The position numbers and the translations under genes are program-made. From Balneola sp. (GTDB lineage: Bacteria; Bacteroidota; Rhodothermia; Balneolales; Balneolaceae), in NCBI GenBank assembly GCA_965284405.1, contig OZ260081.1, positions 2,209,732 to 2,273,731 on the forward strand: a stretch of 64,000 bases of DNA, written 5' to 3'. This document shows, piece by piece, positions 29,262 through 52,400 of the stretch (the stretch's first letter is position 1; each line of letters begins with the position of its first letter). The notes beneath the pieces are model-generated. The model was not told the origin of the DNA. It worked only from the letters and a program-made list of their open reading frames with translations, and did not search any database.

Positions 29262-30641
29262 ATGAAAAAAATCTTTTCTATTTTCTTCTTTTTCATTTTA
29301 GTATCGGTGCAGGCAGTTTATGCTCAGGATACTTTGGAAATTTCACTCCGCGATTTTATTGATCTTGGTTTAAGCAATTCAGGACAAATAAAATATGACA
29401 AAACAAGTGTCGATCTAGCGGAGAACAGAGTAAGCTCAGCTAAGGATCAGCGATTTTTACCTAGTCTTAATTTCAGATCCGAGCATGCACTAGTTCCAGG
29501 TGTATCATCACCCGGTAATTTTCCGGAAGAAGAGATCTATTTGGATCCAAACGCAAAAAATGACTGGGACAAAGTTGGCGTATTCAATCGCCTTAGAATT
29601 ACGGGAGTTCAGCCGGTATTTACATGGGGCTCAATAAATAAAGCAATATCAGCAGCTGAAGAAGCAGTGAAGGCAACTGAGTTCGAATTTCAGGCCAAGA
29701 AAGAAGATATGGAGGTGCGTTTATTTGAGTTGTACTATAGCTATGTACTCGCTTTGGAAATTGAACGCTTGCTTAAGGATGCAGAAGATAAGATCAATCA
29801 GATTGAAAATTCTTTAGATGATGCTCAGGAAGAAGGAGATGATATTGATGAGACTGATGTCTATAAATTCAAAGTTTTTAAAGCACAATTTGGTATTCAA
29901 AAAGCTGAAGTAGATGAAAGTTTAGTTTTCGTAAAACAAACCTGGGAGTATATTCTGAGGAATGAAAACGGTACTATATATATACCTTCAATAAGATATT
30001 TAGATCCTTTAGCCGTAAAGCTTTCCGGATTAGATCACTACCAAAACAGTGCATTTTTAAATAGAAACGAATTACGTGGTATATCAACAGGAAAAGAAGC
30101 TTTGATGAAATATATTGACTATCAAAAAGCTAGTAATTTACCCGGCCTTTATTTAGGATTTACCACCACATTTGCATCAACACCAATTCGTCCAAGACAG
30201 CCAAATCCCTTTATAAGTACACCTGAGAATACTTTTAATACTGCTTTCGGGATTACAATAAGACAAAATTTAAATTTCTTTCAAGCCAAAACTCAACTAG
30301 ACAGAGTAAAGATAGAATTAAGAAAGATGGATTACTTATCCGAAGCTGCAAAAGATGGTATCCTCCTGGAAGTAAACCAAGCATACCAGAAAGCAGCTGT
30401 AGCTGAAGTTAAGGTTGAGAGAACAGATGAAGCTTTGCTTACCACAAAACAATGGTTGCGAATGGAACAACAGGACTATGATTTTGGTATAGGAGAAGTT
30501 AAAGACCTTATTGACGCCATGAAAATGGAACTTGAATTAAGACTTAAAGAGAAAGAAAGTATATTTGAATTCAATACATCCATGGCCAAACTAAATAATG
30601 CAGCGGGAATTCCGTTAGAATTACTACAAAAGAATAATTAA
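29262..30641 (+). CDS. TolC family outer membrane efflux protein
   Basis: Signal peptide, two OEP helical repeats (ISLRDFIDLGL...; YQKASNLPGLYL...; Y..G....DLIDA). Confidence 0.85.
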   Translation: MKKIFSIFFFFILVSVQAVYAQDTLEISLRDFIDLGLSNSGQIKYDKTSVDLAENRVSSAKDQRFLPSLNFRSEHALVPGVSSPGNFPEEEIYLDPNAKNDWDKVGVFNRLRITGVQPVFTWGSINKAISAAEEAVKATEFEFQAKKEDMEVRLFELYYSYVLALEIERLLKDAEDKINQIENSLDDAQEEGDDIDETDVYKFKVFKAQFGIQKAEVDESLVFVKQTWEYILRNENGTIYIPSIRYLDPLAVKLSGLDHYQNSAFLNRNELRGISTGKEALMKYIDYQKASNLPGLYLGFTTTFASTPIRPRQPNPFISTPENTFNTAFGITIRQNLNFFQAKTQLDRVKIELRKMDYLSEAAKDGILLEVNQAYQKAAVAEVKVERTDEALLTTKQWLRMEQQDYDFGIGEVKDLIDAMKMELELRLKEKESIFEFNTSMAKLNNAAGIPLELLQKNN

Positions 30642-30649
30642 TAGATAGA

Positions 30650-31237
30650 ATGAAAAGAAGAATATTTCCAATGTTGTTGTTTGTTTTTGGACTAGTAACA
30701 ATACTTCAGGCACAAACACCAAAAGAAGAGATCAAAACATTATTAGAACAAAGAGATCAACAAGTGAAGACTTTGCTCGGCCCAAAAGGTTCTGAATATA
30801 GTGACGAACAAAGAGCTGAAATAAAAGATATCATTAACGGAGTTATTGATTTTGAATCTATGGCTAAATACGCTCTTGAAGATACTTATGATACTTTGAG
30901 TACTGAGATTCAAACTGAATTCGTTGAACTATTTGCTACAATAGTAAGAGATCAATCGTTAAATAAATTAGATATATATCGTGCAGAGGTTACCTATAAT
31001 TCTATTACAGTTGATGGAAGTGAGGCGATGGTAAAAACTTTTGCAGAGCTGGATGACATCAGAACACCTGTGGATTATACAATGGTAATGAAAGGGGATG
31101 AGTGGGTAATTACAGACCTTATTCTGGATGAGGTTTCTACGGCCGAATCTTATAATCGTCAGTTCCAGCGTATTATTAAAAGGAAGGGCTTTGAATCATT
31201 ATTAAGTACATTGAGAAAAAGAGCAGCCAGAAGTTAG
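30650..31237 (+). CDS. MlaC/ttg2D/HpnM-like periplasmic lipid-binding protein
   Basis: Signal peptide, IDFESMAKYALE, F.ELF, VDY...W.ITDLILDEVS...SYNRQF..II pattern of the MlaC family. Confidence 0.85.
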   Translation: MKRRIFPMLLFVFGLVTILQAQTPKEEIKTLLEQRDQQVKTLLGPKGSEYSDEQRAEIKDIINGVIDFESMAKYALEDTYDTLSTEIQTEFVELFATIVRDQSLNKLDIYRAEVTYNSITVDGSEAMVKTFAELDDIRTPVDYTMVMKGDEWVITDLILDEVSTAESYNRQFQRIIKRKGFESLLSTLRKRAARS

Positions 31238-32138: not shown

Positions 32139-33275
32139 ATGAAAATAGCATTTGTCTCTGATCAAATATATCCAAGAACATCCGCTGATGCAGAGCAGAT
32201 TGTGTCTTCCTTATCTGCACTAGGTAAGACTTCTGAAGTTACACTTATTAGTTTTTGTTACAGTTATTCAAAGAAAGCCGATAAAACTGATATAGAAAGT
32301 TACTTTGGGAAAGAATGTACTTTCGAGTTAAGGTTTGTATCAACTTTATTTAGAAATATCAGAAGTTTTGAAAAAGTGTATTTCGCGCTAAAATCAGTCT
32401 TTCTCTTTGGGACAAAAGATTTCGACGTATTCTATACTAGAAATATCCCTGTTTTAATTGCATTTATGCTATTTACAAAGAAGCGTTTGGTTTTCGAATC
32501 TTACAGACCATGGCCTGATAGAAATTTCCAATCCAGATTATTATTCAAGAAGCTTTCTAAAAACCAGAGATTACTTGGTATCATAACACATTCAGATTTT
32601 GCAAAGCAGAGTTTTCTTGATGCAGGATTTGGTAATGAAGATCTATTAGTTGCTCACAATGCATTTGATATTGATGAGTACAACCCTGATACAGAAGAGG
32701 AAATAAGAAAGGAGCTACAGATACCTCTGAATAAGTTATTAGTTACTTATTCAGGACGAATTTCAGCAAAAAAAGGATTAGACAGGTTTATAAGATTAGC
32801 GGAAAGGAATCCTGAGGTACAGTTTCTATTGGTAGGATCAGAGAAGAGAGGTTCTATTGAGAAGGCTGCAGAAGAGTTGGAAAATGTAATGGTATTAGGT
32901 TGGTTAAAGAAGGACTATGTATTTTCTTTGTTGAAGGCATCGGATATTCTGTATATACCACCAACTTTAATTGCAAGAGATAAAGTAGGGAATACGGTAC
33001 TCCCGCTTAAGACATTTATTTATAAAGCTTCAGGAACTTCAATTTTTGCTCCTAACTCAGAAGATGTATCTGAAGTATTATCTCATAAGAAAACAGCTTA
33101 TTTAGTTAAGCCGGATGATTGGGAAGAAGAAGAAAAAGGATTCAGAGAATTAATTAGCGACAAGCAATTACGAATTTTGCTTGGGAAAAACGCTAAGGAA
33201 GAAATGCTAAAGAATACCTGGGAAAACAGAGCTAATGAGATTCTGAACTTTATAAAAAGATCTATCTCAGCTTAG
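32139..33275 (+). CDS. Glycosyltransferase family 4
   Basis: GT-B fold, VTYSGRISAKKG and PLKTFIYKASG variant of the ExxxxxxxE motif. Confidence 0.85.
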   Translation: MKIAFVSDQIYPRTSADAEQIVSSLSALGKTSEVTLISFCYSYSKKADKTDIESYFGKECTFELRFVSTLFRNIRSFEKVYFALKSVFLFGTKDFDVFYTRNIPVLIAFMLFTKKRLVFESYRPWPDRNFQSRLLFKKLSKNQRLLGIITHSDFAKQSFLDAGFGNEDLLVAHNAFDIDEYNPDTEEEIRKELQIPLNKLLVTYSGRISAKKGLDRFIRLAERNPEVQFLLVGSEKRGSIEKAAEELENVMVLGWLKKDYVFSLLKASDILYIPPTLIARDKVGNTVLPLKTFIYKASGTSIFAPNSEDVSEVLSHKKTAYLVKPDDWEEEEKGFRELISDKQLRILLGKNAKEEMLKNTWENRANEILNFIKRSISA

Positions 33276-36006: not shown

Positions 36007-37176
36007 ATGAAAATTCTCATTTACGCTACTACTTTTGGGGCAGATCTGTTAAGCCTTACACGATACCTTTCCGAAAAGGAGAATGTCGAAATTAAGGTTT
36101 TAATGAAGGAAGTTGAGAAATTTAAAAGTGAAGGTATATATAAGTTATGGGATCTGGATCTAGATATATTTGAGTTTAATAAGATCAATATTATAAAAGG
36201 GATCAGTGGTTTCGATCCCGATGTGACTATTCTGGATAATAATATTCCGCTTAGAGCAGTAAGTCCAAAGGCATTGATTCTGTGGCATGGATACGGATGG
36301 AAAGGGCCGAATGATGAAGAAGAGTTCAAATGGATTCATAGAAACATCCGACTTAGCTGGGGAGATATGAAAATCCCTAACAACAATATTAAGTGGCTTT
36401 GTTTTGGTCCGGTTGATTTTGAACACAGAACTAAGATAAGTGGTTTCCATCCTGAAAACTGTGTAACTCTGGGGTCAGCAAGCCATGACTACCTCAGAGA
36501 AGAAGTGTCTAAAGAGAAGTTACAGCCATACTATCCATTCGATGTTATAAACAGAAAAACGGTGTTGATTGCACCTACATGGCATTATGGAGAAGTATTT
36601 TCACATTGGGGAGATGACGATACTCTTTTTAACAGAGCTTTAAAGGAATTACTAGAAAAAAATGTAAATGTAATTCTGAGACTTCATGATTCATATCGTT
36701 TTGACCATCACTATGTAGAATTTCTTCAAAATTTAGAAGTAAAGTATCCTAATGTGTTGTTGAAATTCAAAGATTCAAATCCTGACAATTTCTTAGACCT
36801 ACAGGTTGCAGATGTTATGGTAACTAATTTCAGCAGCATAGCGAATCTTTTTTACGCTACTAAAAGACCAACGGTTCATATTTATCCGGTAAAGAGCGAG
36901 CATGAATCTTTTATGTGGAGAAATAAAACCCTTTTGGGTATTCGTAAAAAAATGATTGACTCTGTTCGTTTTATCTGGAAATATCCGCCGGAAGATAATG
37001 GTGGTTTATTAGCCAGAAATTATGATGAAATGATGGAGCAGATATTCCAAGGGTTAGATGATCCTGATTGCTGCAAAGAGGCTTCTCAGAACTATTTAGA
37101 TAAACATATGCTAGGTGCAGATGGAAAGAACTGTGAGCGAATTTGGAATACCTTAACTGATCTTGTGAGTAACTAA
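36007..37176 (+). CDS. CDP-glycerol:glycerophosphotransferase (TagF/TagB, PF04464-like) family protein
   Basis: LWHGYGWK (TagF WHG), LIAPTWH (YAPTW/FR), RLHD (second catalytic His), ADVMVTNFSSI (SDxLITDYSS). Confidence 0.85.
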   Translation: MKILIYATTFGADLLSLTRYLSEKENVEIKVLMKEVEKFKSEGIYKLWDLDLDIFEFNKINIIKGISGFDPDVTILDNNIPLRAVSPKALILWHGYGWKGPNDEEEFKWIHRNIRLSWGDMKIPNNNIKWLCFGPVDFEHRTKISGFHPENCVTLGSASHDYLREEVSKEKLQPYYPFDVINRKTVLIAPTWHYGEVFSHWGDDDTLFNRALKELLEKNVNVILRLHDSYRFDHHYVEFLQNLEVKYPNVLLKFKDSNPDNFLDLQVADVMVTNFSSIANLFYATKRPTVHIYPVKSEHESFMWRNKTLLGIRKKMIDSVRFIWKYPPEDNGGLLARNYDEMMEQIFQGLDDPDCCKEASQNYLDKHMLGADGKNCERIWNTLTDLVSN

Positions 37177-37180
37177 AGTA

Positions 37181-38650
37181 CTACTCCGTATCTGACGGTA
37201 ACTTTTTGATCTTTCCTCTTAGTAATGCAATGGTTTCTTTTTCTTTTGTGTATACAATGAACAAACCCAATGCCAGCACAATTGGTACACCCAAAATTGG
37301 GACAAAAATCGACTCGCCTTCAAAAAGAAATTTAAGACCGTATTGAATACCTAATCCCGTTTGCAACAGAACAGGTAATAGCCAGAAACCTGAGAACGCT
37401 CTTCTAATAAAAGTGAAGAGTGAAAGCTCAATTTTCTTACTACCAAAATAAAATAATAAAAGAACAACGACAGGATATCCAATCACCCACGACCAGCCAA
37501 CGCCTAATAATCCGAATTGAGCACCAACTAAGAATGCGAGCGGCATTATAATAGCATTAGACAGAGAGTAGTAGAAGTTTAATTTAGCTTCTCCCACAGC
37601 ATTCAACAATTGTGGAACCAGGGGCGAAACAGTTCTGAGAACAGCAGAGGCTGCTAATAATTGAACCAGAGGTACTGCGTCAAGCCATTCATTATAGCCG
37701 GTGAACAGCAAAATATCATCTACAAAAAGAGCTATTATTATTAGGATAATGCTGTTTAATTGTAAACTTCCTCTGGCTAAAGTAAAGAAGTAAAGCTGTA
37801 AACGTTTAAGGTCATCCTGCAATCTTGAAAAAGCCGGGTATGCAACTTCATTAAGATTTGAAGTAAGAGTTTTTACGGTATCAGTGACAATTCTGTAAGC
37901 TAAAGTGTAAATACCAACTGCTTGTGTACCAAAGATCTTTCCTACAATTAAGTAATCAGCATTTGAATATAAATTATACAAAAGCCTTGAACCTGTAGCA
38001 TATAAACCAAAATAGACTCGATCTTTAACTTCTTCCCAGTTAAACTGGAATCTTGGCCAAAAGGGTTTGTAGGCATGGCTTAGAATAAGTTGACCAAGTC
38101 TGTTTCCAACTTCACCTCCAATAATGGCCCAGGCTCCGTATCCCATGTATCCCAGAGTAACCATGATCACAGTTGAAGCAAGCAGTGCAACATTGTCTAT
38201 TATTGCAAGCTCTTTAAAAAACAGTTCTCGTTTTAATAAATTTCTTGGTACAAAATAGAAAGTAAAAAATACTACAATGATACCGTGTACTCTGACTAAT
38301 GGCGTAATAAGAGGTTCTTCATAAAACTGAGCAGCAAACGGAGCTAAGAGAAAAATGACTCCATAGAGCACTCCTGTCAGCATTAATGATAACCAGAATA
38401 AACTGTCTATTTCACGTTTCTTAAGACTATTAGCCTGAACTATAGCCACGCCAAGCCCCATCTCAGTTACAGCTAATACCACAGCGAAAATGGCAAGTAC
38501 AATACTGGCAATACCAAAAGCTTCAGGGGAAATAAGTTTAAGAACTACAAAAAGCCCTATCACATTTATGATTTTGCTAAATGTGTTGCCTGCTCCCGAG
38601 TATAAAAAAGATTTTATAACCTGGGTTGAAAATGAATTAGCAGAACTCAT
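37181..38650 (-). CDS. WzxC-like polysaccharide flippase
   Basis: KLISPEAFGI, GLGVAIVQ, NADYLIVGKIFG..AVGIYTLAY motifs; multi-TM. Confidence 0.88.
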   Translation of the reverse strand: MSSANSFSTQVIKSFLYSGAGNTFSKIINVIGLFVVLKLISPEAFGIASIVLAIFAVVLAVTEMGLGVAIVQANSLKKREIDSLFWLSLMLTGVLYGVIFLLAPFAAQFYEEPLITPLVRVHGIIVVFFTFYFVPRNLLKRELFFKELAIIDNVALLASTVIMVTLGYMGYGAWAIIGGEVGNRLGQLILSHAYKPFWPRFQFNWEEVKDRVYFGLYATGSRLLYNLYSNADYLIVGKIFGTQAVGIYTLAYRIVTDTVKTLTSNLNEVAYPAFSRLQDDLKRLQLYFFTLARGSLQLNSIILIIIALFVDDILLFTGYNEWLDAVPLVQLLAASAVLRTVSPLVPQLLNAVGEAKLNFYYSLSNAIIMPLAFLVGAQFGLLGVGWSWVIGYPVVVLLLFYFGSKKIELSLFTFIRRAFSGFWLLPVLLQTGLGIQYGLKFLFEGESIFVPILGVPIVLALGLFIVYTKEKETIALLRGKIKKLPSDTE

Positions 38651-38692
38651 AAAATAACTTCTTGTTATAAAGTTTAATAAGCATTCAGTGTA

Positions 38693-40501
38693 TTACTTTT
38701 TGAATAACAGATTTAATACTTCAGTTTGAGATTGTTTTTTTACCAGAAGCCTGTAAGCCACTTCTGCGCTTAAAAAACTCATCAAAGTCCAACCTTGATA
38801 TCCCCCCATTTCATTCAAATGCCAAGATAGCTTTAATCCCATTGAATTAATATGTCCATCATTTACTAATTCACTATTTAGAATAGCGTTATGGTGAATG
38901 GTGTTCAGGTCTTCATTTTTCCGAATCCATGAGTGTTCTGATTCCGGTGCATGATCTTTCTTAAAACCGGATTTTAAAGATTTAAACAGCGATTTCAGAT
39001 TTTTAAGTATAGGCGATTCTATAATTTCTGCCCTAATCTTCATTTCTGAAAATGGGATTCCTTCAACCCCCGGAAAACTCGCTATTTCCGGAAAGTATTT
39101 TTGCAAGGAATGTAAACGAGCTTTTTTATCTCCGGCTACAGAATGGGGAGCTTTAGCGGCATATTGGTAAACAGACAAACTTGCCGCCGGTGAAAATGAG
39201 TACACCTCGTCTTCCAACATGGCATCAATATTTCCGGTGTAATGCAGGCCTCTGTTATGTATATCAAGCATTAACATTTTAAACCATCCTTCACCATTAA
39301 AAGCAGAAACCTGTTCTTTGATCAGTGCTTCGGTAGCTATTTCATGTTTCTTTGAATCTGGAATGAGCAATTTCCTTATGGTGGGGCTGGAATAGGTTCT
39401 GTTCCAGACAGCTTTATATGGATTATCAGATTTGAGCTTGTCAGTTTTAACCGACATCCCCATAAGTAAATCCATGAGATATCCATTAAAACTAATTCTG
39501 CTTTCATCTGAATTGGTATTTTTCAGATTCAGCAAGTAGTATTGATGTATATTGGAAAGCCCGCCGGTTCTGGAAGTCCACCTGCTCAATAAGTTTTTTG
39601 TATCAAGCTGGTTTAATGATTTAAAATTTAATGGAAGATCTAAAGATTCAGCTATTTTCGTAACAGGATCAAAATCTTTTTTTTGAATCAAAATATGCTG
39701 CAGTTGATCTATTTCAGCCTCTTGCTCTAATAGTTCAGCAAGAAGGTGTCTTGAATCAAGGCCTCCGGTAAGTGGAAGCTGAACTTTAAAGTCCTTCAAA
39801 AGCGGGTGATTCAGAACTCCTTTGATAACTTCAGCATTTAGATCTTTTATGTATTCTGAGCACTTATCTAGCGTAAGACTTGAATCCACTTGTTGATCAA
39901 ATGAAAAGATCCTTTCCTTTTTAAGAGGCTGATCCATTTTTATTGTGTATGAAAAACCAGGTAATACTCGCTGAATCTGTTCGATCAATGTTCTGTCGTA
40001 TCCCGTATGTAAAAGTCTTATTTGTTCATAAAGAGCTTGAGCATTAAGAGACATTTCGAGATCAAGTTCCGTAAAGTAAGTAGGAGTGGGGGCAACAGAA
40101 ATCGTATTATTTTGCTGATAAAGATACCAGGGTCTGCTGCAAAGCAGATCACTTAAAAAATGAATAGTTGTACCGTTTTCATTGATCAAGAGTACATTAA
40201 AAAAACCATTCTTGTTCTGAAGAGCTTTAATACCCTTGTCAAGAAACAGGTCTAAGGCACGTTCTGCATCACTTAACTTGTGGTCAAAACTATCAAGATA
40301 TATTCCATCGAAAAATAAAGTCCAGCCATTTTTTGATGCATATGAACTTAATCTGCCTTCGATATGGATGTTATAAGATCCAAAAGTATACCCTTTTTTT
40401 TTGCCGACTAAACTTTGGGAGAGGTAGATGCCCGGAGCAGTAAATATATCGTCAGAAGACTGATCGTTCTCCTTACTTTTTGCTTCGAAGCTATTCTGCA
40501 T
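38693..40501 (-). CDS. Asparagine synthase-like (AsnB/WbpS-type) ATP pyrophosphatase/amidotransferase
   Basis: Degenerate Ntn domain (GFFNV..., SDLLCSRPWY) without an N-terminal catalytic Cys. PP-loop LPLTGGLDSR. Confidence 0.75.
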   Translation of the reverse strand: MQNSFEAKSKENDQSSDDIFTAPGIYLSQSLVGKKKGYTFGSYNIHIEGRLSSYASKNGWTLFFDGIYLDSFDHKLSDAERALDLFLDKGIKALQNKNGFFNVLLINENGTTIHFLSDLLCSRPWYLYQQNNTISVAPTPTYFTELDLEMSLNAQALYEQIRLLHTGYDRTLIEQIQRVLPGFSYTIKMDQPLKKERIFSFDQQVDSSLTLDKCSEYIKDLNAEVIKGVLNHPLLKDFKVQLPLTGGLDSRHLLAELLEQEAEIDQLQHILIQKKDFDPVTKIAESLDLPLNFKSLNQLDTKNLLSRWTSRTGGLSNIHQYYLLNLKNTNSDESRISFNGYLMDLLMGMSVKTDKLKSDNPYKAVWNRTYSSPTIRKLLIPDSKKHEIATEALIKEQVSAFNGEGWFKMLMLDIHNRGLHYTGNIDAMLEDEVYSFSPAASLSVYQYAAKAPHSVAGDKKARLHSLQKYFPEIASFPGVEGIPFSEMKIRAEIIESPILKNLKSLFKSLKSGFKKDHAPESEHSWIRKNEDLNTIHHNAILNSELVNDGHINSMGLKLSWHLNEMGGYQGWTLMSFLSAEVAYRLLVKKQSQTEVLNLLFKK

Positions 40502-40697
40502 TTATATAAAAATTTTATCGTTCAATGAATGTGGAAATATAGGGAATTATCAGTCAAGAGAATCTTTAATATTGATACAGATCCTGCAACAGGAGAGACA
40601 GCTAAGATTATTTTATTTATAAACAGGAAACTTTTAACATCACTTTGTTTAATTGCGTATCTTTCTGAGATTAGATTTTTAAACAAAAAAAGAAATA

Positions 40698-42020
40698 ATG
40701 ACGAAGCCTGATATAGCTCCACACAAAGGAAAACTTTTAGTACTTACACCGGGAATGGGAGCAGTTGCAACTACCTTTATGGCAGGAGTTGCTTCAGCAA
40801 GAAAGAATTTAAGTAAACCATTTGGTTCTCTAACTCAATTACAAACAATCAGGCTTGGTTCACGTTCTGAGAATAGAAACCCGTTAATAAAAGATTTTTT
40901 GGATCTCGCCGGATTAGATGATATTGTTTTTGGCGGGTGGGATGTAAAAGCAGACAATGCTTTTGAAGCAGCTAAAAACGCTGATGTTTTAAAGCCTCAG
41001 GATCTGGATCCGTTAAAGGATGAACTTGAAAAAGTTACTCCAATGAAAGCGGCGTTTAACCAACGTTATGTTAAGAAACTTGACGGACCGAATGTTAAAG
41101 AGCAGACCAATAAAATGGAACTTGCCGAAGCATTAAGAGAGGATATCAGGAATAAACTTAAAGAAACCGGAGCAGACAGAGCAGTAATGGTTTGGTGTGG
41201 TTCAACTGAAGTTCATTTGCATCATTCAGATTGTCATAGATCAATTGAAGCTTTCGAAGAGGGTTTAAGAAATAACGATGATTCAATAGCACCATCTCAG
41301 TTGTATGCTTATGCAGCGATCAAGGAAGGAGTGCCATACGCAAACGGAGCTCCAAATTTATCAGCCGACTTTCCTGCACTTGAGCAATTAGCAGAGCAGG
41401 AAGGTGTACCTATTGCAGGGAAAGATTTTAAAACAGGCCAAACGTTGATGAAAACCATTCTGGCACCGGGTTTTAAAACTCGTATGCTGGGAATCAGAGG
41501 TTGGTTCTCTACAAATATACTTGGTAACAGAGATGGTGAGGTTTTGGATGATCCAGAAAGCTTCAAGTCTAAAGAAGTAAGTAAAACAGGAGTACTGGAC
41601 TCTATTCTTCAGCCTGAAATATATAAAGATCTATATGGTGATCTTTATCACAAAGTAAGAATCAACTATTACCCTCCAAGAGGAGATGAAAAAGAAGGAT
41701 GGGACAATATTGATATCTTTGGCTGGATGGGATATAACATGCAGATCAAAGTAGATTTTCTATGTAGAGATTCAATTCTAGCAGCACCTATCGTTTTGGA
41801 TCTGGCTTTATTCTTAGATTTCGCCAAAAGAGCAGGCAAAGGTGGAATTCAGGAGTGGTTGTCTTTCTACTTCAAGAGCCCTCAGGTTAAAGCAGGTCAT
41901 ATTCCAGAGCACGATATATTTATTCAGCACTTCAGGTTAAAGAATACACTTCGTGTTCTAGCGGGAGAAAAACCCGTTACACACCTCTCCGAAAATTTTG
42001 AAGAAGAGGCGCTAAGCTAA
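40698..42020 (+). CDS. ino1: myo-inositol-1(3)-phosphate synthase
   Basis: GMGAVATT, FGGWD, DFKTGQT, NILGNRDG, SKEVSK, DSILAAP motifs. Confidence 0.96.
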   Translation: MTKPDIAPHKGKLLVLTPGMGAVATTFMAGVASARKNLSKPFGSLTQLQTIRLGSRSENRNPLIKDFLDLAGLDDIVFGGWDVKADNAFEAAKNADVLKPQDLDPLKDELEKVTPMKAAFNQRYVKKLDGPNVKEQTNKMELAEALREDIRNKLKETGADRAVMVWCGSTEVHLHHSDCHRSIEAFEEGLRNNDDSIAPSQLYAYAAIKEGVPYANGAPNLSADFPALEQLAEQEGVPIAGKDFKTGQTLMKTILAPGFKTRMLGIRGWFSTNILGNRDGEVLDDPESFKSKEVSKTGVLDSILQPEIYKDLYGDLYHKVRINYYPPRGDEKEGWDNIDIFGWMGYNMQIKVDFLCRDSILAAPIVLDLALFLDFAKRAGKGGIQEWLSFYFKSPQVKAGHIPEHDIFIQHFRLKNTLRVLAGEKPVTHLSENFEEEALS

Positions 42021-42743
42021 TTGATGTCTGAAAAAGTAGGTCTTATTTTAGCTGCCGGATATGGTTCCAGACTTGAAGGGGTAAGTGCAGTAACTGAGTT
42101 TAAACCACTAACTCCGGTAGCCGGAAAGCCTCTTATATTTAGAACGATTTCCAGTTTAGAGGTCGCAGGTTGTTCAAAGATTGTAATTGTTCTGGGACAT
42201 GGACACAAAGAAATCGAAAAGGCAATTTCAGAATCCTACAAAGGTAATACGCCATTGATATTCGTTTTCAATGAGCGTTTTAACTTGAGCAATGGAGTAT
42301 CTGTATTGTCAGCTTCTGATCATCTGGGTGATTTATTCATTATGACTATGGCCGATCATGTGCTTGGCGATAAATTGATGGAAATTGCAAAGGATTATAA
42401 GCCGAAAGAAGGTGCAGCTGCTCTTCTGGTCGATTATAAGATCGATTCCATTTTTGATATGGACGATGCAACAAAAGTTCTTTCAGAAAACGATAAAATT
42501 ATATCTATCGGAAAAGAGATCGAGAACTTTAACTGTATTGATACAGGTGTATTTGTGTGTACAAGAGGAATTCTGGATTCTCTGAATCGTCATTTTGAGT
42601 CAAACGGTGATACTTCGATTTCAGAAGGAGTACAGGACCTGGCCGAAGAAGGAAACATGTTTACAGTAGATGTAGAAGAAGGATTTTGGCAGGACGTTGA
42701 TACGCCTGAAATGTTAGAGTACGTGGAAAAAATTCTTTCTTAA
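42021..42743 (+). CDS. CTP:inositol-1-phosphate cytidylyltransferase (IPCT)-like nucleotidyltransferase
   Basis: LAAGYGSRL..KPL. SNGVSVL, FIMTMADHV, DDATKV, IGKEIENFNCIDTGVFV and WQDVDT parallel the Archaeoglobus IPCT motifs as recalled. Directly follows ino1. Confidence 0.8.
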   Translation: MMSEKVGLILAAGYGSRLEGVSAVTEFKPLTPVAGKPLIFRTISSLEVAGCSKIVIVLGHGHKEIEKAISESYKGNTPLIFVFNERFNLSNGVSVLSASDHLGDLFIMTMADHVLGDKLMEIAKDYKPKEGAAALLVDYKIDSIFDMDDATKVLSENDKIISIGKEIENFNCIDTGVFVCTRGILDSLNRHFESNGDTSISEGVQDLAEEGNMFTVDVEEGFWQDVDTPEMLEYVEKILS

Positions 42744-44034: not shown

Positions 44035-45606
44035 ATGCATCGATACATAGTAAGGACTGCAGTAGTTTTATTTCTTTTTAGTTTTTTGTGTTCTGAATTA
44101 ATAGCACAAACATCCAGAATATTAGAACTCGAAAATGAAAAAGCTTATCAATTAATTGAGAGATTTGTCAAAAAGGGTAGATTTAATTCTATAAACCCGA
44201 CTAAGCTACCCTACACACATTTTGATATATATAAAGAGCTTCAAAAGCTGGATTACGATCGTTTGTCTAACATTGAAAAAGAATGGTACGATCAGCTTAA
44301 AGAAGAAATTCGCTACTCGGAAAAGCTCGAAGCCAAAGATTATGTTATTGAGCCTTATGTGATTTCAGGAAGTGTATTCAATAATTCCGAGATCAAAAAT
44401 AGCTACCGACCCACATCAGATTCCAAATATGTTTGGCCATTCACGGATCTGGGACTTTTCGCAGATTATAAAAACTTTACGATCAATACGAATATAAGAT
44501 TTGATCTGTATTATGAATTTGGCCCTTTTGAATTAGATCCGACAAACAGATTATATATGCGAAATGAAGATTCGTATGTAGGATATAGCTCAGAATATTT
44601 TCAGGGATACTTAGGCAGGTTTGAGAATAACTGGGGTATTTATGATCAGAAATCAACTTTTATGTCTGATAATGCTCCAACATTTGACCAGTTCAACTAT
44701 ACTATTGGCACCAGAAAATTTTCATTTACAACACTTCACGCTTTTTTAGATAACATTAGCGGGAATGATGAATTTGAAGGTAATACCATTAATGATCCAA
44801 TGTCTAAGAGGAGGTATTTAAGTGTAAAAAGAATAGACTGGAGAGTTTCAGATCATTTAGCATTAAGCATGAAAGAAGGGATCTTATATTCAGGTATGAA
44901 TGTAAATCCTGAGCCTAAATATATGATTCCAGGATTTTTATATTTTTTGCTGGAAGCGTCTAATCCCAGAGATCAGGTTGAAAACCTCTTTATAGGCGGG
45001 AATCTGTGGTTTAATAAGAGTGGGTTTTCCGTAAATCTTGATATGATGATTGACGATCTAATTGGCAACAGAAAGGAACGTGGGATCAGCGAAAAGAATA
45101 ACTTTAGTTTAATTGTGAATTCCAGTTATTCATTTCGGAACAGACCTATAGCTGTAAATTGGGATCTGGAATTCATTACTTATCAAACATATAATACAGA
45201 TCAGGCAGAGGGTAGATACCTTTATTTAGGCAAAGGAATTGCTACAGAATTCAATGATTATGTTTTCAATGAATTAAGTCTGGAATATTATGCTGATTTA
45301 AAGGTTAAAGGATTAACGATTCAACCTTATGTTGGTATATTGAAGCAAGGCGAACAAATTATCAATCAAACATTTCAAAGCAGTTATCCTAATGGCGATG
45401 AATTCGAGATCGTTTTAACTGGAACTGTAGAGTCAACTACAAGATTTGCTTTCAAAACTTATTACAGTCCTGTTAATTATTTTTATGCCAAATTAGATAT
45501 GGGATATAATATGGTTAATAACTTCAGAAATATAGAAGGGATGAAATCGAACAGGTTTGTAGGAATGTTCGAATTTGGCTTCAAGTTCAATTTTAAAAAC
45601 CTATGA
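44035..45606 (+). CDS. Capsule assembly Wzi-family outer membrane beta-barrel
   Basis: Signal peptide, N-terminal helical bundle (I.PTKLPYTH), GRFENNWG, NAPTFDQ and KRIDWR...KEGILYSG patterns; aromatic C-terminus. Confidence 0.65.
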   Translation: MHRYIVRTAVVLFLFSFLCSELIAQTSRILELENEKAYQLIERFVKKGRFNSINPTKLPYTHFDIYKELQKLDYDRLSNIEKEWYDQLKEEIRYSEKLEAKDYVIEPYVISGSVFNNSEIKNSYRPTSDSKYVWPFTDLGLFADYKNFTINTNIRFDLYYEFGPFELDPTNRLYMRNEDSYVGYSSEYFQGYLGRFENNWGIYDQKSTFMSDNAPTFDQFNYTIGTRKFSFTTLHAFLDNISGNDEFEGNTINDPMSKRRYLSVKRIDWRVSDHLALSMKEGILYSGMNVNPEPKYMIPGFLYFLLEASNPRDQVENLFIGGNLWFNKSGFSVNLDMMIDDLIGNRKERGISEKNNFSLIVNSSYSFRNRPIAVNWDLEFITYQTYNTDQAEGRYLYLGKGIATEFNDYVFNELSLEYYADLKVKGLTIQPYVGILKQGEQIINQTFQSSYPNGDEFEIVLTGTVESTTRFAFKTYYSPVNYFYAKLDMGYNMVNNFRNIEGMKSNRFVGMFEFGFKFNFKNL

Positions 45607-45704: not shown

Positions 45705-48212
45705 ATGAAAAAAATTCTAAGGCTGTTTCAGCCATTGTTAAAATTAAATATTAAACATCCATTTTTAGTTCTGGGTGTTTGCCTGTTATTAGCTGTAGTT
45801 GGCGGATATTACTCTATTCAGCTAAAGATAGACACAGACATTGCAAATCTGTTACCTAAGAACCACCCTAATGTATTGGCTCTTGAGAAGTTAAAGAATA
45901 CGGTTGGTGGTGAAACAGAAATGCAGGTGGCGATCAAATCACCTAGTTTTGAAGCAAATAAGAAGTTCGCTGAAGATCTGATCCCAAAAACTCTGGAACT
46001 ATTTTACCCGCGGTATAACGACAAATATTTCAAAAGAGCCGAGTTTCGAAAAGATACCGATATCATTAAGGATAATGCGCTTTATCTGGCCAGTGATGAA
46101 GAGTTGGAAGAGATCACAGATTGGCTTCAGGAAGAAATTGATAATGCCCGCGAAGAAGCAAATCCATTTTTCATCGATTTTGAAGAAGACGAGGAGGAAA
46201 CTTCTGACAACGAGGAGAACAAAGCAGATAGCTTTAAAGAAAGTTACGATGTGCTGGTTCCTTCTGAGTATCCGATAAATGAAGACAGTACTATAATGGT
46301 ATTGAAGTTCTTTCCAACCGGCTCTAAAAGTGATATCCGGTATCTAGAAGACATGTTCGTAAAGTATGATTCACTTCTTACCGCAATGAACCCGGGTTCT
46401 TATCATCCTGATATGGAAGTTCAGTTTGGAGGTCGGTTAAAAAGGCATCTTGAGGAACTTACATCAATCATGAGCGATGTTCTGGGAAGCTTTGCGACAG
46501 GTATTTCAAGTGTAGTGCTCCTTGTTATGATGTACTTCTTTATAAAGAAATATATTCACTATCGAAGAGGGAGAGATGAAGACCTGAATCACAGCATTTG
46601 GAGCCATGTAATCAGAATGCCGGTTCCGGTGTTGATCATTGGCTTACCTCTTATCATGAGTTTGGTATGGACTTTTGGGATAACTTATTTCTATCTGGGG
46701 ATGCTGAATACAATGACCTCGGTTTTGTTTGTTATCCTTTTTGGCTTGGGTATCGATTACGGTATTCATTATTACGCCAGATATATTGAACTTCGTTCAT
46801 CCGGACTTTCTGTTGAAGAAGCTATTCTTACAACCAATGATAAAACCGGAGAGGCAATTTTTGTAAGCGCATTTACAACGGCTTCTGCACTGTATGTATT
46901 GATGTTTGCGGATTTCAGAGGGTTCTCGGAATTCGGATTTATTTCAGGGACAGGAATTATGCTTGCACTTTTTGCAATGCTTTATGTGCTTCCTTCCTTG
47001 TTGGTAATCTTTGAGAAATTTAACTGGGTTTTATTTTCTAAAAAGGAGTCTACTTCCAATTCAATGGAAAATAAAAAATACCCATATGCAAGAACTACGG
47101 TTGTAGCAGGTTTAGTTCTTTCAGCAGTTGTAATAGGATTTAGCGGAACTCTCAGTTTCCAATACGATTTCGGAAAGCTGGAACCAACCTATCCTTCTTA
47201 TGAAAAATTCAGAGAAGTAGCCGGTCAGGTTGGAAGTTCAGATAAAAGAAATCCGGCTTACATCATTGCGGATTCTGACAGTGAAGTAGAAAATTTGGTT
47301 GAAGTGTTAAACCAAAAAATGCAAGCGGACACAAGTTCTCCAACCATATTAAGTATCGAAGCACTTCAGGATCGTTTTCCTGCCACAGAAGAAGAGGAAG
47401 AAGGAAAACTACAGAAAATTGCCCGAGTCAGGGAATTATTAGACAATACATTCATCAGAAATAAGGAAGATGAAGATCTGGATAAACTACGCAGAGCAGC
47501 TCAGACCAGAGAGCCGTTAACGATCGATCAGATTCCTCCGTACCTCAAGTCAAAATTTATAACCAAAGACGGAGAAGTAGGAAGATTCGTGATCATTTAT
47601 CCGTCGGTTGGACTTTCTGACGGAAAGAAATCCATAGCTTTTAAGGACGACATCGGATCAGTAACTCTGGACAATGGGAAAACTTATTATGCAGCCAGTA
47701 CATCTATAGTTGCAGCTTCCATGCTCGATCTAATGCGAACTGAAAGTCCGTATATGGTTGGAGCGACATTCATTATTATTTACCTGTTCATGATCTTTAC
47801 TTTCCGTTCGTTCAGATGGTCTGTTATCTCCATGTTACCTCTTGTAGTAGGTTTACTTTGGCTATTCGGAATTATGATGATATTCGATCTTCAATTTAAT
47901 TTTTATAATCTGGTGGTTCTCCCCGCCATTTTGGGAATTGGTGAAGACAGCGGAGTTCATCTGGCTCACAGATATCGGGATGAAGGTAAAAATTCCATGT
48001 GGGCAGTCCTTTCCAGTACAGGTCAACATATTTCGATGGGATCTATAACAACTATGCTTGGTTTTGCGGGACTTTTATTTACGAGTCATCCGGGATTGCA
48101 ATCATTGGGCGTAATGGCAGTGATCGGAATTGGAATGACATTATTGACTTCTTTAACTTTCTTGCCGGCTCTCATTCAATGGTTGGAAGATAAAGACTGG
48201 ATCAGATACTGA
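45705..48212 (+). CDS. MMPL/HpnN-type RND family lipid transporter
   Basis: Two RND halves (1+5 TM each) with GLGIDYGIH and GIGEDSGVH proton-relay motifs. Confidence 0.92.
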   Translation: MKKILRLFQPLLKLNIKHPFLVLGVCLLLAVVGGYYSIQLKIDTDIANLLPKNHPNVLALEKLKNTVGGETEMQVAIKSPSFEANKKFAEDLIPKTLELFYPRYNDKYFKRAEFRKDTDIIKDNALYLASDEELEEITDWLQEEIDNAREEANPFFIDFEEDEEETSDNEENKADSFKESYDVLVPSEYPINEDSTIMVLKFFPTGSKSDIRYLEDMFVKYDSLLTAMNPGSYHPDMEVQFGGRLKRHLEELTSIMSDVLGSFATGISSVVLLVMMYFFIKKYIHYRRGRDEDLNHSIWSHVIRMPVPVLIIGLPLIMSLVWTFGITYFYLGMLNTMTSVLFVILFGLGIDYGIHYYARYIELRSSGLSVEEAILTTNDKTGEAIFVSAFTTASALYVLMFADFRGFSEFGFISGTGIMLALFAMLYVLPSLLVIFEKFNWVLFSKKESTSNSMENKKYPYARTTVVAGLVLSAVVIGFSGTLSFQYDFGKLEPTYPSYEKFREVAGQVGSSDKRNPAYIIADSDSEVENLVEVLNQKMQADTSSPTILSIEALQDRFPATEEEEEGKLQKIARVRELLDNTFIRNKEDEDLDKLRRAAQTREPLTIDQIPPYLKSKFITKDGEVGRFVIIYPSVGLSDGKKSIAFKDDIGSVTLDNGKTYYAASTSIVAASMLDLMRTESPYMVGATFIIIYLFMIFTFRSFRWSVISMLPLVVGLLWLFGIMMIFDLQFNFYNLVVLPAILGIGEDSGVHLAHRYRDEGKNSMWAVLSSTGQHISMGSITTMLGFAGLLFTSHPGLQSLGVMAVIGIGMTLLTSLTFLPALIQWLEDKDWIRY

Positions 48213-48230: not shown

Positions 48231-48572
48231 ATGAAGATCGTCAAAATTAATACTGATGATATTCTTGATTGGAACTCATTTCATGAAGTCTTCTCGAGTA
48301 AGTTTGGATTCCCAAGTTTTTACGGTAGAAATATGGATGCGTGGATAGACTGTATGGAATCATTGGATTCTCCTGAAGATGGAATGACAACAATTCATGT
48401 TAAGCCCGGAGAAACTTTGATACTGGAATTGAATAATGTTACATCATTTGCCAAAAGAAATAAAGAGATTTATGAAGCTATTGTCGAGTGTTCTGCCTTT
48501 GTTAATCACAGAAGAATCGAAGTTGGAGAGCCTCCGGTTCTTACTTTATCTTTTCATAAAAAAAATGTCTAA
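48231..48572 (+). CDS. Barstar family protein
   Basis: I.DWNSFH..F...FGFPSFYGRNMDAWIDCM motif. Confidence 0.85.
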   Translation: MKIVKINTDDILDWNSFHEVFSSKFGFPSFYGRNMDAWIDCMESLDSPEDGMTTIHVKPGETLILELNNVTSFAKRNKEIYEAIVECSAFVNHRRIEVGEPPVLTLSFHKKNV

Positions 48573-50844: not shown

Positions 50845-50877
50845 CATCCATCTGACGGATAGCCCGTCTGATGGATG
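50845..50877. repeat. Palindrome family X (CATCTGACGG-N5-CCGTCTGATG), copy 1
   Basis: CATCCATCTGACGG-ATAGC-CCGTCTGATGGATG. Other copies at 51517-51541, 52261-52285 and 62926-62950. Confidence 0.85.
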
Positions 50878-50880
50878 ATA

Positions 50881-50975
50881 ACGACATTCACGAGCGTATG
50901 CGAAATGATCTCCGTAAAAAGCTAAAGCATATCGAATTCAAGAGATTGCGTCGTCACATCCGTTCCTCGCAAATG
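50881..50975. repeat. Degenerate GTCATTGCGAG.../GAGATTGC...CCTCGCAATGAC-type REP doublet
   Basis: ACATTCACGAGCGTATGCGAAATGATCTC ... GAGATTGCGTCGTC...CCTCGCAAATG. Confidence 0.5.
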
Positions 50976-50992
50976 GAATTCCATACAAACAC

Positions 50993-51006
50993 AGGGCTGA
51001 AGCCCT
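50993..51006. repeat. GGGCTGAAGCCC-type REP hairpin
   Basis: AGGGCTGAAGCCCT; related copy at 63455-63473. Confidence 0.6.
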
Positions 51007-51051
51007 TGCTAGCATATGTACGAGCCCATTTCTAAACATTTTTAATCTAGG

Positions 51052-51479
51052 GTCATCCTGAACTTGTTTCAGGATCTTTGCGGGGTTTATTGCTAGTTGT
51101 TCTATCCGAAACACCAATCAATGTTTAATAACCTCCATCACCCCGCTTTCAGCGAAATGATGGATAGCTACTTCTCCGTCTGTCGGGCTTTGCACGGCTG
51201 ACGGATTTTGATTGTAGTGGAAGGAACGGACCTCCCCGGTTCCGAAATACATTCGTGGGTTCTGAGTAGTTCGCCCCTCCTTAGATAAGGAGGGGAATTC
51301 CCGAGTTGATTCTAAATATTATCAACGACTCCTCCTCCTGTTGCAGGAGGAGACAGAGGAGGTCTTTAACTTTAGAAATCACAATCAAAGTCATTCCTGC
51401 GAAGGCAGGAATCTGGATTGTTATCAAAGAGTGTGATCTTCAAAAAGATCCAGATCTCGGGCATACGCCGCGAGATGAC
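51052..51479 (+). repeat. Composite palindromic element, long form, copy A1
   Basis: Starts GTCATC, ends GATGAC. Ordered hairpins; near-identical to 51788-52222. Confidence 0.9.
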
Positions 51480-51576
51480 CCGTTTTATTATTTTTTTAGC
51501 AGAATTTCCAAAAATTCATCTGATATGTAGCCCGTCTGAAGAATCTTCGTAACAATAGGTCTGAGAAATTACTCAC

Positions 51577-51772
51577 TTACTTTTGTCTTGATACAAAAGT
51601 AACAAAAGATCAAGGCGAAGTATTTAAACCGGGCTCGTTTAATTGTCGCTGAATAATTCCAAAGGTCTTCGTTCTTTTAGAGAAAATTTCTACACTTTTC
51701 ACCTGAAGGAATTATTCCCACTTCGCGGACGCTTACAATTCTTGCTCACTAACCGGTTTTAATACTAAGGCC
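51577..51772. repeat. Structured element B: short perfect hairpin plus long imperfect hairpin
   Basis: TTACTTTTGT-CTTGAT-ACAAAAGTAA. GTATTTAAACCGG(51620)/CCGGTTTTAATAC(51753). GAATAATTCC(51651)/GGAATTATTC(51708). Confidence 0.65.
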
Positions 51773-51787
51773 GATAAAAGTATAACC

Positions 51788-52222
51788 GTCATCCAGTCCG
51801 CCAGCTGGCGGATCAGGATCTTTGCGGGGTTTATTGCTAGTTGTTATATCCGAAACACCAATCAATGTTTAATAACCTCCATCACCCCGCTTTCAGCGAA
51901 ATGATGGATAGCTACTTCTCCGTCTGTCGGGCTTTGCACGGCTGACGGATTTTGATTGTAGTGGAAGGAACGGACCTCCCCGGTTCCGAAATACATTCGT
52001 GGGTTCTGAGTAGTTCGCCCCTCCTTAACCAAGGAGGGGAATTCCCGAGTTGATTATAAATTTTATCAACGAGTCCTCCTCCTGTTGCAGGAGGAGACAG
52101 AGGAGGTCTTTAACTTTAGAAATCACAATCAAAGTCATTCCTGCGAAGGCAGGAATCCGGATCGTAATCAAAGAATGAGTTCTTCAAAAAGATCCGGATC
52201 TCGGGCATACGCCGCGAGATGG
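51788..52222 (+). repeat. Composite palindromic element, long form, copy A2
   Basis: Same module order as A1. First hairpin variant is GTCATCCAGTCCGCCAGCTGGCGGATCAGGATCT. Confidence 0.9.
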
Positions 52223-52260
52223 CCTGTTTTATTATTTTCCCTGCAGAACTTCCCTAGATT

Positions 52261-52285
52261 CATCTGACGGATTACCCGTCTGATG
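52261..52285. repeat. Palindrome family X copy
   Basis: CATCTGACGGATTACCCGTCTGATG, the exact reverse complement of 62926-62950. Confidence 0.9.
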
Positions 52286-52400
52286 TATCTTCGTAGAGAC
52301 AACCTCAACAAGTCCCATCCTCAGGTTTCTTCTGGTTAGTATTAGCCGTATTTTGTGAGATCAATAAAATCCCGTTTTTATAAACAGTTCCTCCAATACT

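Follow-up and report, generated by a model that had tools for sequence, protein, structure and literature searches.

Which enzyme uses the cytidine diphosphate (CDP)-inositol that appears to be made at an envelope locus of Balneola sp.? The question is raised by a stretch of 64,000 nucleotides of this bacterium (contig OZ260081.1, positions 2,209,732 to 2,273,731, forward strand; hereafter the window), in which a gene for a TagF-type phosphotransferase lies close to ino1, the gene for myo-inositol-1-phosphate synthase (MIPS), and to a gene for an IPCT-type cytidylyltransferase. The original prediction proposed that the TagF homologue adds inositol-phosphate units from CDP-inositol to a teichoic-acid-like polymer, and named a glycolipid cap as the other option. 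From the analysis of the locus and its relatives, it is quite likely that the TagF-like enzyme uses CDP-inositol. The best explanation of the whole, an inositol-phosphate-capped glycolipid or short glycan made through this enzyme, is on balance probable. The three genes are as follows.

36007..37176, plus strand: TagF/TagB-type phosphotransferase (PF04464-related, GT-B), 389 aa; PF04464 39.9 bits
40698..42020, plus strand: ino1, myo-inositol-1-phosphate synthase, 440 aa; PF07994 310 bits, PF01658 117 bits
42021..42743, plus strand: stand-alone IPCT-type cytidylyltransferase, 240 aa; NCBIfam IPCT/DIPPS N-terminal half 128 bits

The TagF-like protein scored above the PF04464 cut-off of 22.1 bits, with only residues 153-291 aligned. 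It is cytoplasmic by prediction, with no signal peptide and no transmembrane (TM) segment. Its AlphaFold model (pLDDT 89) has the GT-B fold of two Rossmann domains. Foldseek placed the TagF-like domain of Bcs3 (8a0c), TagF (3l7j) and Cps3D as the best matches of this model (TMq 0.66-0.69), with E values down to 3.5e-14 among the best structural matches, while TarL gave TMq 0.54-0.56 and UDP-GlcNAc 2-epimerases 0.48-0.61. A family profile of 45 sequences matched TarL (E 1.9e-6); single-sequence phmmer searches of the PDB with the protein, or with its N-terminal 81-residue fragment, gave chance matches only. Two histidines, His94 in the motif WHG and His227 in RLH, are invariant among the 45 TagF-like homologues and align with the QLWHG and (K/R)xHP motifs of full-length canonical PF04464 proteins and with 'KMHP' of TarL. 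Their spacing of 133 residues equals that of H300 and H433 in TarL, where H300 is the residue changed in the H300N variant according to the title of 8va1. The assignment of the enzyme to the TagF family with both histidine motifs, made in the original prediction, is thus borne out by the PF04464 match, the fold and the invariant residues.

The TagF-like proteins form a small and sharply separate clade. Searched with a family profile, a set of 1.84 billion representative proteins gave 253 matches; E<=1e-30 was reached by 53 representative clusters, and the scores of canonical PF04464 proteins were only about 45-65 bits. Where canonical members have 'HP' at the second histidine, the clade has 'HD', and it has 'TNFSS' where they have 'TD(Y/W)SS'. 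Some residues are invariant in the ino1-linked clade and different in the sister clades, namely G11, a GPND insertion at 100-103 (after WHG), H160, P190, A279 and L281; these are candidate specificity determinants. One metagenomic member of the clade, P0125 (564 aa), is fused to a C-terminal GT8 domain fragment, comparable to multidomain TagF-like capsule polymerases. In three Rhodothermales species (L069:9029-11185, L070 and L072), the TagF-like protein carries, as an in-frame N-terminal fusion, a domain of about 300 aa with six TM segments. The same domain is encoded by a separate gene beside the TagF-like gene in L067 and L075, with homologues in L040, L055, L056, L058, L063 and L074. No Pfam or NCBIfam match was obtained for it, and no homologue was present in the window. 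It was considered as a flippase domain of the MprF/LPG-synthase type, an assignment which was dropped since no Pfam or NCBIfam model fits.

Both genes of the presumed donor pathway were found where the original prediction had placed them. The ino1 product is full length for both MIPS domains (PF07994 3-321/321 and PF01658 1-107/107), and its orthologues adjoining the TagF-like gene in related loci are 67-99% identical. The IPCT-like open reading frame (ORF) starts one base past the ino1 stop codon, with a likelier ATG start at 42024, and is directly 3' of ino1 in nearly all related loci. Its best NCBIfam match was the N-terminal IPCT half of IPCT/DIPPS (NF041135, 128 bits), followed by the next family at 71 bits; the score stays below the equivalog cut-off because the model spans the fused IPCT/DIPPS protein. 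In the PDB, the best matches were the IPCT of A. fulgidus (2xme, 4e-21) and that of T. maritima (4jd0, 1.8e-15), along with 4mnd, and the motifs GxGxRL, KPL and (M/G)DH are aligned and conserved relative to the solved IPCTs. The protein has no fused DIPPS or BEPIS domain. From this strong family membership we infer that Ino1 would form L-myo-inositol-1-phosphate and IPCT would convert it to CDP-inositol. Specificity of the IPCT-like enzyme for inositol-1-phosphate is predicted because its gene is tightly coupled to ino1.

To examine the linkage of the three genes, 80 loci were compared, one per species and 1.4 Mb in total, which encode TagF-like members 48-99% identical and come from Balneolales, Rhodothermales/Salinivenus, Myxococcota, Alphaproteobacteria and Desulfobacterota. 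They were searched with all proteins of the locus, and linkage was counted within 10 kb. Both ino1 and IPCT were found on the same strand as the TagF-like gene in 54 of the 80 loci, so the co-occurrence across phyla that the original prediction had put forward as a check was indeed observed. The direct order TagF-like gene, ino1, IPCT with gaps of 90-360 nt was seen in 29 of these 54. The linked loci belong to Balneolaceae, Fodinibius, Rhodothermales, Salinivenus-type Bacteroidota and metagenome-assembled genomes (MAGs) of Myxococcota/'Deltaproteobacteria', and also to two Alphaproteobacteria (L051 and the Rhizomicrobium locus L063) and one Desulfocapsaceae MAG (L065). Gene order was permuted yet linkage kept in L049, L077 and L079. 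In the lineage of the window, the TagF-like gene and ino1 are separated by an insertion on the opposite strand, which consists of the Wzx flippase gene, sometimes with an AsnB-like gene. The most compact form was seen in L038 (Rhodothermales), where GT4a, Wzx, TagF-like gene, ino1 and IPCT make one overlapping five-gene unit on the same strand; L022 (Myxococcota) has the same order, but no IPCT within 10 kb. Neither ino1 nor IPCT was found in 17 loci, and in 10 of them the contig breaks off downstream, less than 2.4 kb past the TagF-like gene. In a rough neighbour-joining tree, the loci without ino1 nest within the ino1-linked clade and are not a lineage apart. As it recurs in 54 of 80 loci of several phyla and survives rearrangement and insertion, the three-gene linkage exceeds chance.

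Two additions to these clusters were also noted. A gene for a secreted DUF3047 protein is directly 3' of IPCT in about 10 loci of Fodinibius, Salinibacter-like and Rhodothermales members (L030:13648-14403, L045:13746-14528 and L069:13498-14259). In Gracilimonas and relatives (13-16 loci; L008:11209-13129), the TagF-like and Wzx genes are separated by an insertion of two sulfotransferase genes (PF13469), which suggests a sulfated version of the product in Gracilimonas.

Other consumers of CDP-inositol and other donors for the TagF-like enzyme were searched for in the window and in the loci. The CDP-alcohol phosphatidyltransferase motif (D(x2)DG(x2)AR...G(x3)D(x3)D) was absent from a six-frame scan of the window and from all 54 loci having both ino1 and IPCT. 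Across the loci it appeared only in PgsA-like genes of L076 and L078. The TagD-type motif GxFDxxHxGH was also absent from the window, and PF01467 and PF01128 (IspD) had no match among the window ORFs scanned by Pfam, which covered nearly all ORFs of at least 100 aa. These scans agree with the original prediction that the window holds no TagD or TarI/TarJ and no CDP-alcohol phosphatidyltransferase. In the 80 loci, the TagD-type motif occurred once, in L052, beside a separate canonical PF04464 gene (196 bits). The partners of the TagF-like gene are ino1 and IPCT, and pairing with tagD or tarI/tarJ was not seen in the window.

Relatives with 31-41% identity branch outside the ino1-linked clade in the rough tree, and their loci have candidate donor genes of other types. 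A PF01467+QueH fusion or an IspD+SDR fusion adjoins the gene of the TagF-like subfamily in the sister-clade loci L082/L083 and L084/L085; the IspD-SDR fusion is of the CDP-ribitol-synthase type and the PF01467 gene of the cytidylyltransferase type. Another sister-clade locus, L088, has an MMPL-GT4a-MATE-GT4b-TagF-like cassette with order and strands as in the window, without ino1 and IPCT. The contigs of the deeper relatives P0122, P0123, P0129, P0134 and P0138 are too short to show gene context. That donor genes are swapped between clades is the strongest of the indirect arguments for each clade using the donor of its own locus, which here would be CDP-inositol. Two further observations concern these sister loci. 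An NTP_transf_3+CDP-OH_P_transf fusion is encoded 7 kb upstream of the L088 cassette, and genes for a polyprenyl synthase and a geranylgeranyl-reductase-like protein are found nearby in L082.

The conserved operon, the lack of another consumer or donor gene in these loci and the donor swapping in sister clades together point to the use of CDP-inositol by the TagF-like enzyme. In the proposed pathway, Ino1 would convert glucose-6-phosphate to L-myo-inositol-1-phosphate, and the stand-alone IPCT-type enzyme would join it with CTP to give CDP-inositol. The soluble GT-B enzyme would then take CDP-inositol as donor, replacing the CDP-alcohol phosphatidyltransferases used elsewhere. Through the pair His94/His227 it may release CMP and transfer inositol phosphate, at the cytoplasmic face, to a hydroxyl group on an acceptor bound to the membrane. 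As acceptor, a short lipid-linked glycan or glycolipid built by the co-conserved GT4a, GT4b and GT2 is most likely, and the TagF-like enzyme would act as a single-addition, TagB-like 'capper' and not as a polymerase. Judged from the neighbourhood only, the product could be flipped by one or more MOP/Wzx-type flippases and probably reaches the outer membrane aided by HpnN-like resistance-nodulation-division (RND), HpnM/MlaC-like, TolC-like and AttH-like proteins. The envelope locus is bounded by an ATP-synthase operon and a tRNA-Ser gene (up to 29182) and by housekeeping genes (from 48231). Besides the three genes listed above, it contains the following.

29262..30641, plus strand: TolC-like outer-membrane factor (OEP); PF02321 90 bits; with the MlaC-like gene in 41 loci
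30650..31237, plus strand: MlaC/HpnM-like periplasmic lipid-binding protein; PF05494 91 bits, HpnM TIGR03481 58 bits
31237..32085, plus strand: GT2 glycosyltransferase, 282 aa; PF00535 70 bits; in 14 loci
32139..33275, plus strand: GT4 glycosyltransferase 'GT4a', WcaI-like; PF00534, PF13692, WcaI-family 57 bits
33262..34743, minus strand: second MOP/MATE-like flippase (Polysacc_synt/MatE), 493 aa; PF01943, PF01554
34730..35872, minus strand: GT4 glycosyltransferase 'GT4b', 380 aa, divergent from the TagF-like gene; PF00534 102 bits, PF13439; in about 21 loci and L088
37181..38650, minus strand: Wzx/MOP flippase (Polysacc_synt_3), 489 aa; PF13440 206 bits, MOP flippase NF007773 207 bits
38693..40501, minus strand: asparagine-synthase-like amidotransferase or adenylating enzyme, 602 aa; weak TIGR01536 match, 34 bits
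42774..43820, minus strand: secreted AttH/CrtC-like double beta-barrel protein, 348 aa (predicted fold); in 35 loci
44035..45606, plus strand: Wzi-like outer-membrane protein, 523 aa; PF14052 31.6 bits (cut-off 30.1); in about 14 loci
45705..48212, plus strand: HpnN-like MMPL/HAE3 RND lipid transporter, 835 aa; PF03176 142 bits, HpnN TIGR03480 286 bits, BstA 186 bits

The neighbouring GT2 and GT4 genes of the original prediction were confirmed by Pfam and NCBIfam matches. GT4a is the most widely co-conserved glycosyltransferase of the module, with full-length homologues (32-38% identical) adjoining the trio in Rhodothermales, Salinivenus, Myxococcota and Alphaproteobacteria. Comparison of GT4a with the PDB was uninformative, giving Alr3699 and a sucrose-phosphate-synthase-like protein. 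In the alphaproteobacterial loci, the trio is surrounded by two or three GT4 genes. Homologues of the Wzx/MOP flippase (37181..38650) with 40-54% identity were found in about 30 loci, and in Rhodothermales L038 and Myxococcota L022 the flippase gene immediately precedes the TagF-like gene, in the same orientation. The window ORFs that were scanned gave no Pfam match for Wzc/Wzz, Wza, a priming phosphoglycosyltransferase or a TagGH/KpsMT-type ATP-binding cassette (ABC) exporter. No Wzy was recognised in the same set, where several ORFs have no Pfam match and Wzy is hard to detect, and Wzy, Wzc/Wzz, Wza or priming genes may be encoded in other parts of the genome. Nor is any of these gene types, the ABC exporter included, represented in the gene clusters common to the loci.

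Genes related to lipid trafficking recur around the module. The HpnN-like transporter and the HpnM-like protein stay below the cut-offs of the respective models (752 and 160 bits) and, by these scores, are relatives of those families and not members. About 34 loci have HpnN-like RND homologues at the flanks of the module, Myxococcota MAGs and the sister-clade L088 among them, and the MlaC-like gene is beside it in 42 loci, including Rhodothermales; MlaC and OEP genes adjoin the module in Desulfocapsaceae L065 too. The secreted 348-aa protein has no Pfam match, and its AlphaFold model (pLDDT 91) matched AttH NE1406 (2ich, E 4e-12, TMq 0.65) first and kievitone hydratase next, indicating an AttH/CrtC-like fold. 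The protein recurs beside the module in Balneolaceae, and its fold is typical of binders of hydrophobic molecules. One homologue is labelled carotenoid 1,2-hydratase/CrtC by its source. The 348-aa protein was also compared with the DUF2804 and DUF3047 proteins of other loci and found unrelated. The asparagine-synthase-like protein is probably not glutamine-dependent because the N-terminal Cys2 of class-II glutamine amidotransferases is missing. Its gene was found only in near relatives of the window and in L022, L044 and L046, in line with a lineage-specific accessory role, possibly in glycan amidation.

Together, the GT4s, the MOP flippases, the lipid-trafficking neighbours and the six-TM fusion favour as product a glycolipid or short lipid-linked glycan that is bound to the membrane and probably destined for the outer membrane. 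The Wzx-type flippase and the small number of glycosyltransferases suggest a short unit with a single inositol phosphate, TagB-like or resembling a capsule side chain, and not a long polymer. That the product class is an anionic inositol-phospho-glycolipid or short lipid-linked glycan is plausible on sequence grounds, at a little short of an even chance. The sequence fits both a glycolipid made first and then capped with inositol phosphate, and inositol phosphate transferred first and then glycosylated in the manner of phosphatidylinositol mannosides (PIMs). The use of CDP-inositol proposed in the original prediction is strongly supported by operon conservation, absence of a rival consumer in the loci with both ino1 and IPCT, and donor swapping. 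The teichoic-acid-like polymer is not supported, given the conserved GT4s and MOP/Wzx flippases, the lack of a recognised ABC exporter, Wzy, Wzc or priming enzyme, and the recurring lipid-trafficking genes. The other option of the original prediction, a glycolipid cap, is closer to the evidence.

Several points weigh against an inositol-phosphate-capped product made by this enzyme. The PF04464 match is weak and partial, the roles of the TagF-like protein, Ino1 and IPCT here are predictions from sequence and models, and the nature of the acceptor is read from neighbour genes only. Wzx flippases classically act on units linked to undecaprenyl diphosphate, which would favour a glycan over a glycolipid. 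An IPCT-like fold is no guarantee of specificity for inositol-1-phosphate, because Caulobacter CpgD, whose best structural match is the IPCT 4JD0, takes 3-phosphoglycerate and makes CDP-glycerate (10.1101/2025.01.09.632243). Seven loci with adequate flanks (L027, L043, L048, L052, L053, L076 and L078) have no ino1 or IPCT within 10 kb, and within the same distance ino1 stands alone in L022 and L079 and IPCT alone in L068 and L073. TagF-fold enzymes also transfer hexose-phosphate from UDP-sugars (PMC8262930). The absences reported above cover the window and the loci, and a BEPIS/DIPPS-type consumer or tagD/tarIJ may lie elsewhere in the Balneola genome.

Some of these points would also be expected if the genes were unrelated neighbours, clustered merely because all of them serve the envelope. 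The TagF-like enzyme would then use CDP-glycerol, CDP-ribitol or UDP-hexose made elsewhere, and Ino1 and IPCT would feed a distant CDP-alcohol phosphatidyltransferase of the BEPIS, DIPPS or Bacteroides-alternative type for inositol phospholipids. The CDP-inositol consumers that we found described are all CDP-alcohol phosphatidyltransferases (PMC9246714; PMC4587543), and CpgA, the consumer of the related donor CDP-glycerate, is of the same family (PMC9393093). The seven loci without the pair, the tagD gene adjoining a canonical PF04464 gene in L052, the several donors accepted by TagF-fold enzymes (PMC8262930) and the restriction of the scans to the loci, so that the rest of the genomes may hold such a consumer, all speak for this explanation. 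It is nevertheless unlikely in view of the closely spaced genes in direct operon order that 29 species from different phyla share, the linkage in 54 of 80 loci, the lack of a PF01066-type motif in any locus with both ino1 and IPCT, the different candidate donor genes of the sister clades, and the nesting of ino1-less loci in the ino1-linked clade. A second alternative retains the donor and changes the acceptor, with inositol phosphate placed directly on diacylglycerol, dialkylglycerol or ceramide; the TagF-like enzyme would be a non-homologous substitute of BEPIS, and the GT4s would then glycosylate inositol in a PimA/PimB-like manner to give exported PIM-like glycolipids. It is consistent with the position of the TagF-like gene, which is that of BEPIS in the R. 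marinus operon, with the adjoining lipid-transport genes, the membrane-domain fusion in Rhodothermales and a cyclopropane-fatty-acid synthase gene beside the L063 cluster. PimA, PimB and MshA are of the GT4 family, and the MshA-model matches of GT4a and GT4b are generic. To our knowledge, some myxobacteria have inositol lipids without an assigned route of synthesis. We know of no TagF-family enzyme acting on a bare lipid alcohol and of no Wzx-type flippase for such lipids, and the direct head-group route appears decidedly unlikely, with the reservation that sequence cannot tell its step order from that of a glycolipid capped last with inositol phosphate.

A processive enzyme making poly(inositol-phosphate) or poly(glycosyl-inositol-phosphate) on a glycan primer, as in teichoic acids or group-2 capsules, was weighed in the same way. 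The nearest structures are the polymerases TagF, TarL, Bcs3 and Cps3D, a Wzi-like gene is close by, and the GT8 fragment fused in P0125 recalls multidomain capsule polymerases. Fold similarity, however, does not distinguish primase from polymerase, and a length of 389 aa without extra domains is that of single-addition TagB-type enzymes. The enzyme is conserved together with Wzx/MOP flippases, which carry short units across, and a TagGH/KpsMT-type ABC exporter, Wzc and Wza were not recognised in the window and these families are absent from the gene clusters common to the loci; a polymer is thus improbable. Least probable by far is a compatible solute, in which CDP-inositol would react with a small soluble alcohol (inositol-1-phosphate, glycerol or glycerate) to give an osmolyte like di-myo-inositol phosphate (DIP) or glycerophosphoinositol. 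The host taxa are often halophilic or marine, CDP-inositol is the precursor of DIP in hyperthermophiles and the TagF-like enzyme is soluble. Flippases, GT4s and lipid-transport genes are nevertheless conserved in the operon, the membrane-domain fusion exists, and the cluster is also found in MAGs of lineages not known as halophilic, such as Rhizomicrobium.

The inositol-phosphate-capped product can be placed among known systems. Synthesis of DIP in archaea and Thermotoga employs IPCT/DIPPS. The R. marinus operon consists of ino1, IPCT and BEPIS (Jorge et al. 2015, as related in PMC4587543), and a putative 'alternative' inositol-lipid cluster of Bacteroides/Prevotella of MIPS, NTP-transferase, CDP-alcohol phosphatidyltransferase and HAD (PMC9246714). 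As far as these accounts describe them, both share with the present locus MIPS and a stand-alone IPCT-type enzyme in one operon, CDP-inositol for an envelope product and hosts from related phyla (Rhodothermota/Bacteroidota). Their third enzyme, within the same accounts, is an integral-membrane BEPIS/PF01066 protein, whereas here it is a soluble GT-B enzyme of TagF type with GT4s and MOP flippases. TagB, TagF, TarL and the single glycerol-phosphate side-chain transferases of Wzx/Wzy capsule loci share the GT-B fold and the two histidine motifs with the TagF-like enzyme, which is TagB-sized. By analogy, a CDP-activated alcohol as donor and a lipid-linked acceptor at the cytoplasmic face would be expected here. 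Unlike them, the TagF-like clade is tied to ino1/IPCT instead of tagD/tarIJ and is found in diderm phyla.

TagF-type phosphotransfer already operates in diderms, as TagF-like capsule polymerases of Gram-negative pathogens (Bcs3, Cps3D and Cps7D) transfer glycerol-, ribitol- or hexose-phosphate (PMC8262930). The statement in the original prediction that such a surface polymer is unknown in diderms needs amendment to this extent; it stands with regard to inositol, which none of these enzymes is known to use. They include the best structural matches of the TagF-like model (8a0c, 8qoy), but they are multidomain proteins in ABC-transporter (group 2) capsule loci, while the Balneola enzyme is single-domain, lies beside Wzx-type flippases and lipid-transport genes and has a cyclitol as predicted donor, which is not reported for the family. 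Similarly, in the ceramide diphosphoglycerate pathway of Caulobacter (CpgD/CpgA), an IPCT-fold enzyme makes an unusual CDP-activated donor for an anionic outer-membrane lipid of a diderm; that donor is CDP-glycerate, however, and the transferase CpgA is PgsA-like (PMC9393093). The capsule of B. thetaiotaomicron shows that inositol can be part of a diderm surface glycan, being MIPS-dependent and reaching up to 0.2 mol%; no transferase or activated donor is assigned there, B. thetaiotaomicron uses the PIP-synthase route, and no TagF-type link is known (PMC9246714). Novosphingobium acidiphilum makes a lipid resembling inositol-phosphoceramide and has neither of the known clusters (PMC9246714). 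In the literature searched, TagF-like enzymes were not found together with inositol, nor Balneolaceae with phosphatidylinositol, and among the papers listed since 2015 that mention CDP-inositol, titles and abstracts revealed no TagF-type consumer.

Some features of the window outside these systems are also recorded. Its GC content is 33-43%. The source is a Balneola species closely related to Balneola sp. EhC07, and locus L001 encodes proteins 94-100% identical to those across the region. A scan for sigma-70 promoters and terminators between 29 and 48.5 kb gave no more sites than shuffled sequence, and tRNA-Ser was the sole Rfam match. About 1.5 kb (50846-52288), between a queD-like PTPS gene and a radical-SAM (queE-like) gene, has no ORF of at least 100 aa and contains a 300-nt unit in two tandem copies, 98% identical and spaced by 744 nt, without Rfam match and bounded by three copies of the 31-nt motif ATCCATCTGACGGATAGCCCGTCTGATGGAT. 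A 433-aa ORF without Pfam match (20931-22232, plus strand) lies between the genes for IMP dehydrogenase and an M23 peptidase, and its N-terminus, with YYFPPMGGSGVQRPLKFAKYL, is similar to GT4-type glycosyltransferases. Possible toxin-antitoxin or defence genes are a PIN-domain ORF (16785-17201, minus strand), a barstar-like ORF (48231-48572, plus strand), beside which no barnase gene was seen, and an AAA_15/AbiEii-type ATPase (55425-57251, minus strand).

If the TagF-like enzyme is an inositol-phosphotransferase, it would add a new donor to the PF04464-type family and a second, non-homologous class of CDP-inositol consumers. What appears new here, a known fold and chemistry with a new predicted donor and a known donor with a new predicted consumer class, is well supported by the sequence comparisons. 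The gene pairing points to an undescribed route for inositol phosphate onto a cell-envelope glycolipid or glycan, and the enzyme could serve the chemo-enzymatic synthesis of inositol-phosphate glycoconjugates. It is possible, though doubtful, that the locus encodes an unrecognised class of anionic outer-membrane glycolipid, with an inositol-phosphate head group added by the TagF-type enzyme, its own flippase and HpnN/MlaC/TolC-like export, in Balneolota, Rhodothermota, many Myxococcota and some Proteobacteria. Such a glycolipid would give diderms an equivalent of lipoteichoic-acid or PIM-type lipids, and its synthesis would be a third enzymatic means of attaching inositol phosphate to lipids. 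At least four phyla have the module; among their members are Balneolales and Salinibacter relatives that are abundant in marine and hypersaline settings, as well as myxobacteria of soil and sea. With this conservation, the product of the module is likely a widespread, so far unseen envelope component. Being probably anionic and exposed at the outer membrane, it may have a bearing on envelope stability, salt adaptation and recognition by phages or predators.

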